Source: Escherichia coli (GTDB lineage Bacteria > Pseudomonadota > Gammaproteobacteria > Enterobacterales > Enterobacteriaceae). From it: 64,000 bases of DNA. A program made the translations under genes and the position numbers. Below are positions 41,207 through 43,599 of the stretch, piece by piece. The notes beneath the pieces were generated by a model, which was not told the DNA's origin, searched no databases, and saw only the letters and a program-made list of their open reading frames with translations. The stretch lies in NCBI RefSeq assembly GCF_022846255.1, contig NZ_AP025682.1, one strand, 5' to 3'. Every line of letters begins with the position of its first letter. Within the stretch, counting starts at the first letter, position 1.

Positions 41207-42775
41207 TTAGCGTGCCGGCTGAGTAGTCGTGGAAGACTGCTCAAAGTGATAGCGACCGGTTTTCAGGCTGCTTGGGCCGAGGCGTGCAAACTTGAACATT
41301 AAGAACAATTCTGCCACCAGGAACAGGGTATACAGGCCGCAAATCAGCACCATTGAGAAGATGAGATCGCCTGCGGTCAGTGACGAGTTCGCCACAGCTG
41401 TCGGCAGCACTTCACCGATAGCCCACGGTTGGCGGCCATATTCAGCCACGAACCAGCCCGCTTCTACAGCAATCCACGGCAGCGGAATACCGTACAGCGC
41501 GGCGCGCAGCAGCCATTTTTTCTCGCCAATGCGGTTGCGGATGACACTCCAGAAAGAGAGCGCAATGATTGCCAGCAGCAGGAAGCCACACGCCACCATG
41601 ATACGGAACGCGAAGTACAGCGGCGCTACACGCGGAATGGAGTCTTTGGTTGCCTGTTGAATCTGAGCTTCAGTCGCATCAGCCACGTTTGGCGTATAGC
41701 GTTTCAGCAGCAGACCGTAACCGAGATCTTTCTTCATGCTATTGAACTGGTCACGAACGGCCTGGTCGGTAGAACCAGAACGCAGTTGTTCGAGCAGAGA
41801 GTACGCCTTCATCCCGTTACGAATGCGTTCTTCATGCTGCACCATCAGTTCTTTCAGGCCGATAACTGGAGTATCCACGGAACGCGTTGCAATGATGCCC
41901 AGCGCGTAAGGGATCTGGATCGCAAATTTGTTCGTCTCCTCTTCCTGATCAGGAATGCCGAACAGAGTAAAGGCAGCAGGTGCAGGTTGCGTTTCCCACT
42001 CGGCTTCGATAGCAGCCAGTTTGGTTTTCTGCACGTCGCCCATTTCGTAACCGGATTCATCACCCAGAACAATAACAGACAGAACGGCAGCCATACCGAA
42101 GCTGGCAGCGATAGCAAAGGAGCGTTTAGCGAAGGCGAAGTCACGACCTTTCAGCATATACCATGCGCTGATACCGAGGATGAACATCGCGCCAGTCACA
42201 TAACCAGAAGCTACGGTGTGAACGAATTTCACCTGAGCAACCGGGTTAAGCACCAGCTCGGAGAAGCTCACCATCTCCATACGCATAGTTTCAAAGTTGA
42301 AATCGGACGCGATTGGGTTTTGCATCCAGCCGTTTGCAACCAGAATCCACAGTGCGGACAGGTTTGAACCGAGCGCCACCAGCCAGGTGACACACATATG
42401 CTGAACTTTACCCAGACGATCCCAACCGAAGAAGAACAGACCTACAAAGGTGGATTCGAGGAAGAAGGCCATCAGACCTTCGATTGCCAGCGGCGCACCG
42501 AAGATATCCCCTACATAGTGGGAATAGTAAGACCAGTTAGTCCCGAACTGGAACTCCATGGTCAGACCGGTAGCCACACCCAGAGCAAAGTTGATACCAA
42601 ACAACTTGCCCCAGAACTTGGTCATATCTTTATAAATCTGTTTGCCGGAAAGGACGTAGACCGTTTCCATAATGGCCAGCAGGAACGCCATACCGAGCGT
42701 CAGTGGCACAAAAAGGAAGTGGTACATCGCGGTCAAGGCAAACTGTAAGCGCGACAGTTCGACTATATCTAACAT
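41207..42775 (-). CDS. cydA: Cytochrome bd-I ubiquinol oxidase subunit I
   Basis: 522 aa from [26 protein letters not shown]-track ORF has one extra Met. Confidence 0.93.
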
Positions 42776-43060
42776 CATGACTCCTTGCTCATCGCATGAA
42801 GACTCCGAGAGTGAACCCCGTTAGAAAGGGTCACACGCATGCCCCAATACAAAATTATTTGCTCGCCTCTATCGTTGCCATTTCATCAAAAGAGGAAAAG
42901 ACAATGATAAAAAAGTTACAAATGTGTTAATGAATAAACCAAATTGATCCCGTAATTATATTACGCCGCAAAATCCTTACAATAAACAGGTTTTTATTGA
43001 GCAAATTTGCATTTTTCGACAGTGATCAATTTATAGCGAAATTGTCACGATCTCACCAAT

Positions 43061-43126
43061 TTGATCTACAACAATTTATCGTGTTTTGCAGATTTTTTTC
43101 AAGAATTAAAAATTGATTTATATCAA
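43061..43126. promoter_or_regulatory. Two FNR-type boxes (TTGAT-N4-AACAA and TTGAT-N4-ATCAA) with centres 52 bp apart, cydAB regulatory region
   Basis: ttgatctacaacaa (43061-43074) and ttgatttatatcaa (43113-43126); spacing fits the remembered FNR-1/FNR-2 arrangement at cyd P1. Confidence 0.6.
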
Positions 43127-43599
43127 AATCAACCACATATGTTAATTATGTGTGAATCATGAGCCACTGGTAACTTTATTGTTAATTTATTGTAACAAAA
43201 CAGCACGGTAAATTACCCACATGGAAATATATAGATAAAAAACCAGTATTTTATTTAACAAAGCCGCTTTATCGACTTTTTATAATACTAATTAGTTAGA
43301 GTAGCTACTTTATTGCCATTTTACATAACATATTTTTATCAACGTTAATTGATTGTTGTCTTTATGAGCAACGTACTGTAAATCCGTCACTTATTGTTTC
43401 ATTGGTAATAATCACAAGAAGAAATAGATACCTTAGGTATAGTCAGATGGAACAAGGATTTTTAAAATAAAATATATATGGTATTAATATTTCCCGATCT
43501 GTATTCAATGATTCGCTCAAAGATTGAAAATCAAGAGAAATTGTTATAGCAGTGATACGAAACAACAAAACGGAATGATTGCCAGCCGTTAGAAAACAC

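Follow-up and report, generated by a model that had tools for sequence, protein, structure and literature searches.

The two FNR-type boxes that lie upstream of cydA in the window (the whole stretch of Escherichia coli DNA analysed here, 64,000 nucleotides in length) are very probably the pair of FNR operators belonging to the cydAB promoter P1, in this case in a B2-type strain. The FNR site pair of cydAB is already known, and the window holds an ordinary instance of it in a strain other than K-12. Both boxes could be read in the sequence just as the original prediction had described them, that is, as one near-perfect and one perfect match to the palindrome TTGAT-N4-ATCAA, with centres 52 bp apart and about 290 bp 5' of cydA. 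The proximal box (written otherwise as ttgatctacaacaa) has a single mismatch and is centred at 43067.5; the distal box (written otherwise as ttgatttatatcaa) is centred at 43119.5 and is the sole perfect match to the palindrome in the 64-kb window. The two centres lie 292.5 and 344.5 bp, respectively, upstream of the cydA ATG.

43113..43126, no strand: distal FNR box TTGATTTATATCAA, in gene orientation TTGATATAAATCAA, centre -53.5, span -60 to -47 from the predicted P1 start
43061..43074, no strand: proximal FNR box TTGATCTACAACAA, in gene orientation TTGTTGTAGATCAA, centre -1.5, span -8 to +6 from the predicted P1 start
41207..42775, minus strand: cydA coding sequence, cytochrome bd-I subunit I (ORF list, RefSeq annotation at the near-identical locus of LF82, and translation)

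A position-weight-matrix scan, which had been proposed as a check on these boxes, came out in their favour. The matrix was built from 61 ChIP-bound predicted K-12 sites (Myers et al. 2013, Table S6, PMC3688515), the two cydA sites being omitted, and the training sites themselves have a median score of 15.1 bits and a minimum of 11.8 bits. The distal box scored 20.0 bits and the proximal box 16.1 bits, values that lie within the score range of in vivo sites and above the weakest training site; the boxes were the top two of approximately 64,000 positions in the window, and no other position exceeded the training minimum.

Alignment with the K-12 cydA upstream region, the other check proposed, placed the known FNR sites on the boxes and not elsewhere. 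The K-12 mngB-cydA spacer can be aligned to the window over a stretch that begins at the ATG and ends slightly past the distal box, and both pairwise and seven-way alignments put the boxes in register with two K-12 counterparts, TTGATATTTATCAA (distal, at 771110-771123, 341.5 bp from the ATG) and TTGTTCTCGATCAA (proximal, at 771162-771175, 289.5 bp from the ATG). Gene, order and distance from cydA all correspond, the spacing of the pair is 52 bp in both genomes, and the 3-bp difference in the distances to the ATG is accounted for by indels in the leader. These two K-12 sequences are predicted sites that coincide with an FNR ChIP-seq peak (770,404-770,405) covering both of them; their listed positions, 770333 and 770385, belong to an older coordinate system that runs 777 below the current one (Myers et al. 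2013, Table S6, PMC3688515). In the same study cydAB is given as directly repressed by FNR, with its top-scoring site at -53.5 (Table 1), and both arrays and RNA-seq in K-12 found it to be FNR-repressed, although only partially (Myers et al. 2013, PMC3688515). The top-scoring K-12 site is the distal box. The proposal that the window boxes are the tandem FNR repressor sites of cyd P1 is therefore borne out by their orthology to two K-12 sites under an FNR ChIP-seq peak; FNR binding, the P1 start and repression in the B2-type strain itself we infer from the K-12 work. Window and K-12 P1 are alike in the half-sites, the -10 element, the 52-bp spacing and the orthologous position, but the spacer bases within both boxes differ, and the K-12 boxes score 16.9 and 13.4 bits by the same matrix. 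K-12 cydAB P1, with its FNR sites centred at -53.5 and -1.5 and ArcA sites on the flanks, is the known system nearest to the window promoter (Cotter et al. 1997; Govantes et al. 2000; Myers et al. 2013; Park et al. 2013).

The alignment with K-12 is informative about selection, for in E. coli the cyd promoter region exists as two strongly divergent alleles. The window is of the B2 type, with 99.5-99.7% identity to strains 2A and LF82 over 42700-43700. Among 5,425 complete genomes, 2,245 (41%) match at least 80% of 42776-43400 and carry the window-type allele, and 3,175 match the proximal 382 bp only, at 79% identity, and carry the K-12-type allele. Between the window and K-12, identity is 79% over 42860-43157, whereas there is hardly any difference in the flanking leader or in cydA; the K-12-type allele is more distant from the window type than is that of E. 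albertii. A seven-way alignment comprised the window, K-12, O157:H7, DA33135, HH45, E. albertii and strain E69. Across these seven Escherichia haplotypes there was no variation in the half-sites of either box or in the -10 element, whereas adjacent bases varied freely. In the proximal box, TTGT and GATCAA are the parts that are invariant in Escherichia, and in E. albertii a one-base insertion gives a box spacing of 53 bp. Half-sites that remain fixed across alleles approximately 20% divergent point to selective constraint on the boxes relative to their flanks. One member of the alignment, strain HH45, is a recombinant, being K-12-type to about 43150 and window-type beyond.

The pair is also found outside Escherichia. 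We retrieved 120 cydA loci by means of a degenerate pattern of the codons for residues 1-13, a procedure in which the boxes played no part, and FNR matches were counted for the 109 loci, each from a different species of Enterobacterales and related groups, that had at least 450 bp of upstream sequence. An FNR match was present upstream of cydA in 98 of the 109 species, against 5.4% of shuffles, and a pair of matches 51-53 bp apart in 25 species, against none of 2,180 shuffles; the spacing of these pairs was exactly 52 bp in 20 species, 51 bp in four Yersinia and 53 bp in E. albertii. For the 47 species with their best site at a distance of 320-360 bp from the ATG, scores 51-53 bp downstream of that site had a median of 10.3 bits, compared with a 99th percentile of 7.3 bits for the background. 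The distal box is the best-conserved block in 30 genera. Fnr sites have previously been predicted 5' of cydAB in ten gamma-proteobacterial genomes, including those of Yersinia, Pasteurellaceae and Vibrionaceae (Ravcheev et al. 2007). Two further patterns were seen in these alignments. The block GCTATAAATTGATCAC.GTCGAAAAA at 43000-43036 (P1 +30 to +66) is kept in about 30 genera, and the motif GATCAA(A/T)TT, which holds a Dam GATC site, occurs in three copies at conserved positions, with the GATC at 43063-43066 (at the P1 +1 and within the proximal box), at 43024-43027 and at 42946-42949 (at the downstream start described below).

That the boxes are nothing but functionless chance matches to a short AT-rich palindrome is a reading to which we attach practically no probability. 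The spacer in which they lie is indeed AT-rich, with a GC content of 26-31%, and when the AT-rich interval 42776-44103 (about 1.3 kb) was subjected to 2000 dinucleotide-preserving shuffles, 18% of them yielded at least one FNR matrix match; in the window as a whole, one-mismatch versions of TTGAT-N4-ATCAA number six against 2.5 expected, an excess that is marginal taken alone. However, neither two matches scoring 16 bits or more nor a pair spaced by 51-53 bp turned up in any of the 2000 local shuffles, and chance would not account for boxes that are orthologous to ChIP-bound K-12 sites, that keep their half-sites invariant in flanking DNA that is 20% different and that retain their layout across genera. 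This explanation was rejected on the conservation and shuffle tests. It is also most improbable that the related regulator CRP, rather than FNR, binds here, because three of the four half-sites are of the FNR type (TTGAT/ATCAA) and the fourth (AACAA, in the proximal box) is one base off, no half-site has the CRP-type core GTGA/TCAC, the four bases between the 5-mers give an FNR-like spacing, and an FNR ChIP-seq peak covers the corresponding K-12 boxes. CRP was rejected on these half-site cores, the spacing and the K-12 peak.

The boxes can be placed relative to a promoter. The +1 of K-12 P1 (770,393 in the old coordinates and 771,170 in the current ones) transfers by homology to 43066 in the window, the +1 and the -1.5 position having been derived from the -53.5 of Myers et al. 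and the 52-bp spacing. A promoter scan gave hexamers at the corresponding place, and a second, downstream promoter was also recognized.

43066..43102, minus strand: promoter P1 (promoter scan), with -35 TTGAAA at 43102-43097, an 18-nt spacer and -10 TAAATT at 43078-43073
42776..43066, minus strand: cydA leader from P1, 291 nt (by arithmetic from the predicted +1 and the RefSeq start codon)
42951..42988, minus strand: second, downstream promoter, TTTATT-17-TAATAT or TTGTAA-16-TATAAT, with a start at 42951 and a 176-nt leader

The -10 hexamer of P1 ends at 43073, seven bases before the predicted +1 (the G at 43066), and the proximal box overlaps both. The two boxes are thus centred at -1.5 and -53.5 of a sigma-70 promoter whose start is taken from K-12. 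The sequence GATAAATTG, together with CTTG(A/G)AAA, is kept in the two E. coli alleles as well as across genera. At the other end of the leader, cydA has two adjacent in-frame ATGs (42775-42778), of which ORF finders take the first (523 aa, starting at 42778 in our ORF list) and RefSeq the second (522 aa, with its A at 42775 on the minus strand). The predicted leader of about 290 nt holds for P1 transcripts, which would carry 291 nt. The accompanying claim, that the main transcript start is near 43066, stands in part: the -53.5 of Myers et al. puts P1 at 43066, but it may not be the main start, as there are several cyd promoters in K-12.

It is a substantial possibility, which we place somewhat below an even chance, that the boxes are real FNR sites at a promoter of minor importance, with most cydA mRNA arising from the downstream promoter (at about 42951) or from others; the 290-nt leader would then belong to a subset of transcripts and FNR would govern only part of the output. 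Genome-wide mapping in K-12 found, rather than P1, a cydA start at 770,509 with a 172-nt UTR and, ahead of it, the sequence of the downstream promoter (Kim et al. 2012); the window equivalent of this start is 42951, and the downstream promoter (42955-42988) is the best promoter-like match to the consensus in the region (10 of 12 positions) and is near-invariant in 30 genera. Secondary sources describe five cyd promoters, P1-P4 being regulated by oxygen and P5, which is not, giving a significant share of aerobic transcription, and the FNR repression seen in K-12 is only partial. On the other hand, the P1 hexamers and both boxes are conserved as strongly as the downstream promoter, the growth conditions used for transcription start mapping may not have favoured P1, and Myers et al. 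take P1 as the reference start. K-12 and the window share both the downstream promoter and the final 85 nt of the leader.

The arrangement of the boxes at P1 has a parallel at yfiD, where tandem FNR sites 53 bp apart (2714579 and 2714632) are listed in K-12 (Myers et al. 2013, Table S6, PMC3688515). Like cyd P1, the yfiD promoter would accommodate two FNR dimers about five helical turns apart. The proximal yfiD site, near -40.5, is an activating one and the upstream site down-modulates; cyd P1 would differ from it in that the proximal cyd site overlaps the +1 and both cyd sites would repress. Another tandem FNR promoter is that of ndh.

For ArcA, a matrix was constructed from 112 boxes (Park et al. 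2013, Table S3), with the cydA boxes omitted. The scan that had been proposed for ArcA sites was productive: five predicted boxes of at least 17 bits were found in 42776-43443, compared with 0.12 expected from local shuffles, and three lie at K-12 offsets.

43139..43196, plus strand: three ArcA-like boxes (ArcA matrix), counterpart of the K-12 ArcA region 'cydA2', as follows
43139-43156, plus strand: ArcA-like box, P1 -90 to -73, 19.8 bits
43168-43185, plus strand: ArcA-like box, P1 -119 to -102, 17.5 bits
43179-43196, plus strand: ArcA-like box, P1 -130 to -113, 20.2 bits
42913..42930, plus strand: leader ArcA-like box, counterpart of K-12 'cydA3', P1 +137 to +154, 18.7 bits
43325-43342, minus strand: far-upstream ArcA-like box, P1 -276 to -259, 17.3 bits
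43342-43359, plus strand: far-upstream ArcA-like box, P1 -293 to -276, 12.2 bits

The three boxes at K-12 offsets (-130 to -113, -119 to -102 and +137 to +154) fall within the regions cydA2 and cydA3 of Park et al. (2013). In the K-12 ChIP-seq region 770260-770311 the boxes have the same orientation and are weaker, with offsets of -130 to -113, -119 to -102 and -99 to -82; the window box at -90 to -73 lies 9 bp from the last of these. The upstream boxes of the window (17.5-20.2 bits) are nearer to the consensus than those of K-12 (10.3-12.8 bits). The leader box has a K-12 equivalent of 14.8 bits at an equal offset and is conserved across genera, and in 31 other species the ArcA matches cluster at equal offsets from the distal FNR box. 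An ArcA-P binding region of cydAB should show direct repeats of approximately TGTTAA, phased by 11 bp, where K-12 has its footprints and ChIP-seq regions, and the five boxes of at least 17 bits accord with this. The far-upstream block at 43325-43359 is conserved in O157:H7, DA33135, HH45, E69 and E. albertii, and ArcA would be predicted, from the sequence only, to bind it. The far-upstream K-12 site 'cydA1' (P1 -302 to -285) is not retained in the window, which has no similarity to K-12 upstream of -117, and the K-12 sequence that bears it is not homologous to the window block with the 43325-43359 boxes; 'cydA1' and any K-12 promoters beyond -117 therefore have no direct counterpart in the window, which has a different ArcA-like box at -276 to -259. 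In K-12, ArcA is considered to activate cydAB mainly via disruption of H-NS binding (Park et al. 2013, citing Govantes 2000), and the mngB-cydA spacer has been flagged as H-NS-bound (Shimada et al. 2014).

As to the extent of the control region, our results depart from the original prediction, which took the boxes to imply a regulatory region retained intact to at least 43.3 kb and bounding the inner edge of an AT-rich island. The boxes themselves reach only to 43126, and similarity to K-12 stops at 43157 (with a blastn word size of 11) or 43183 (with a word size of 7), about -117 from P1, so that, judged against K-12, retention does not extend as far as 43.3 kb, a limit that could not be deduced from the boxes. 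Upstream of P1 -117, local alignment of K-12 and window was no better than that of shuffles (z = 0.4), with blastn in agreement, and we therefore rejected the idea that the K-12 sequence there is a diverged homologue of the window. The limit of 43.3 kb is nevertheless roughly right for the window allele, in which conservation runs to 43415 or 43443 and the ArcA-like boxes lie at 43325-43359. Nor does the regulatory region bound the AT-rich island, as a GC content of 26-31% spans the regulatory region itself (42900-43500). Window-type sequence extends to 43415 in O157:H7 and to 43443 in E. albertii, and in E69, DA33135 and HH45 it reaches all the way to the TPR gene; other genera share only 350-425 bp with either E. 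coli allele; from this distribution, the K-12 arrangement looks to be the derived one. The strongest K-12 ArcA site, cydA1, lies in sequence that is absent from 41% of E. coli genomes.

Some smaller observations concern the same interval. The sole match beyond the homology break is a 13-nt exact identity, ACCGTGCTGTTTT, at 43197-43209 in the window and 770972-770984 in K-12, displaced by 55 bp; it may be an ancestral remnant or due to chance, its score being reached by nine of 300 shuffles. A variable hotspot (43415-45357) separates sucD from the cyd control region: the window and LF82 have only a TPR protein there, K-12 has mngR-mngA-mngB and no TPR gene, DA33135 has mngB and TPR, O157:H7 has a methylaspartate mutase/ammonia-lyase cluster and HH45 has a frameshifted TPR gene. 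The 371-aa ORF of the window encodes a generic TPR protein, the small ORFs in the AT-rich spacer gave no Pfam match, and a search for repeats and inverted repeats in 42776-44200 returned only short two-copy matches.

The leader RNA appears to have features of its own. Its last 85 nt or so (42776-42860, minus strand) are near-invariant across Enterobacteriaceae, and two helices can be drawn within them.

42779..42834, minus strand: structured proximal leader with two predicted helices (helix 1 from alignment covariation, helix 2 from RNAalifold)

The arms of helix 1 lie at 42834-42828 and 42818-42811; those of helix 2 lie at 42803-42794 and 42788-42779, and the Shine-Dalgarno sequence AAGGAG (42786-42781) would be paired within it. 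In a plain MAFFT alignment, six of the eight pairs of helix 1 showed changes on both sides, with a covariation score above all 500 shuffles and all slid controls; in a model-fitted alignment (60 distinct sequences from 71 loci), which leans toward the model, the figure was eight of eight. Helix 2 is near-invariant, so covariation cannot bear on it, and RNAalifold recovered only this invariant hairpin from the plain alignment. The single-sequence fold of the proximal leader was no more stable than shuffles (z = 0.08), and an Rfam scan of 42600-45400 gave no match at E values up to 1. A covariance model located the leader element 5' of cydA in 71 of 100 sources. We tentatively suggest, as something that may well prove otherwise, that the leader does more than act as a spacer and that its last 85 nt might be an RNA element conserved in Enterobacterales that sets cydA translation or mRNA stability post-transcriptionally; if so, it would be an extra layer of cytochrome bd control, absent from Rfam and of which we found no description in the literature. 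An alternative pairing with the invariant upstream segment UAUUGGGGCAUG (segment UAUUGGGGC) is possible. Just ahead of the cydA ribosome-binding site there is also a two-codon mini-ORF, ATG CGA TGA (42788-42796), with its own GGAG six bases 5'; as several genera have lost the stop codon, it is probably not conserved as an ORF.

Taken from the K-12 work, the following mechanism would apply in the window strain. In the absence of oxygen, FNR dimers carrying a [4Fe-4S] cluster would occupy both boxes; the proximal dimer, extending from -8 to +6, would cover the -10 hexamer and the start point and so block RNA polymerase, and the distal dimer, centred at -53.5, would sit just above the -35 hexamer and on the same DNA face, five helical turns further upstream, where it might reinforce this occupancy. 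ArcA-P on the box cluster between P1 -130 and -73, and on the further boxes, would, going by K-12, increase expression chiefly through displacement of H-NS from the AT-rich DNA. The combination of ArcA activation with FNR repression would give a peak of cytochrome bd-I at low oxygen.

As regards annotation, the cyd P1 operator, its promoter hexamers and the likely start points can now be placed in a B2-type strain. The FNR layer of cytochrome bd-I control would be the same as in K-12, and what is known of FNR is unchanged. The K-12 map of the cyd region is valid only to approximately 117 bp upstream of P1 for carriers of the window-type allele, which make up 41% of complete E. coli genomes and include O157:H7 and B2 pathogens. 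Cytochrome bd-I is important in colonization of the gut and in growth at low oxygen, and any allele-specific control by ArcA or H-NS would for that reason be of interest and worth comparing between the two alleles.
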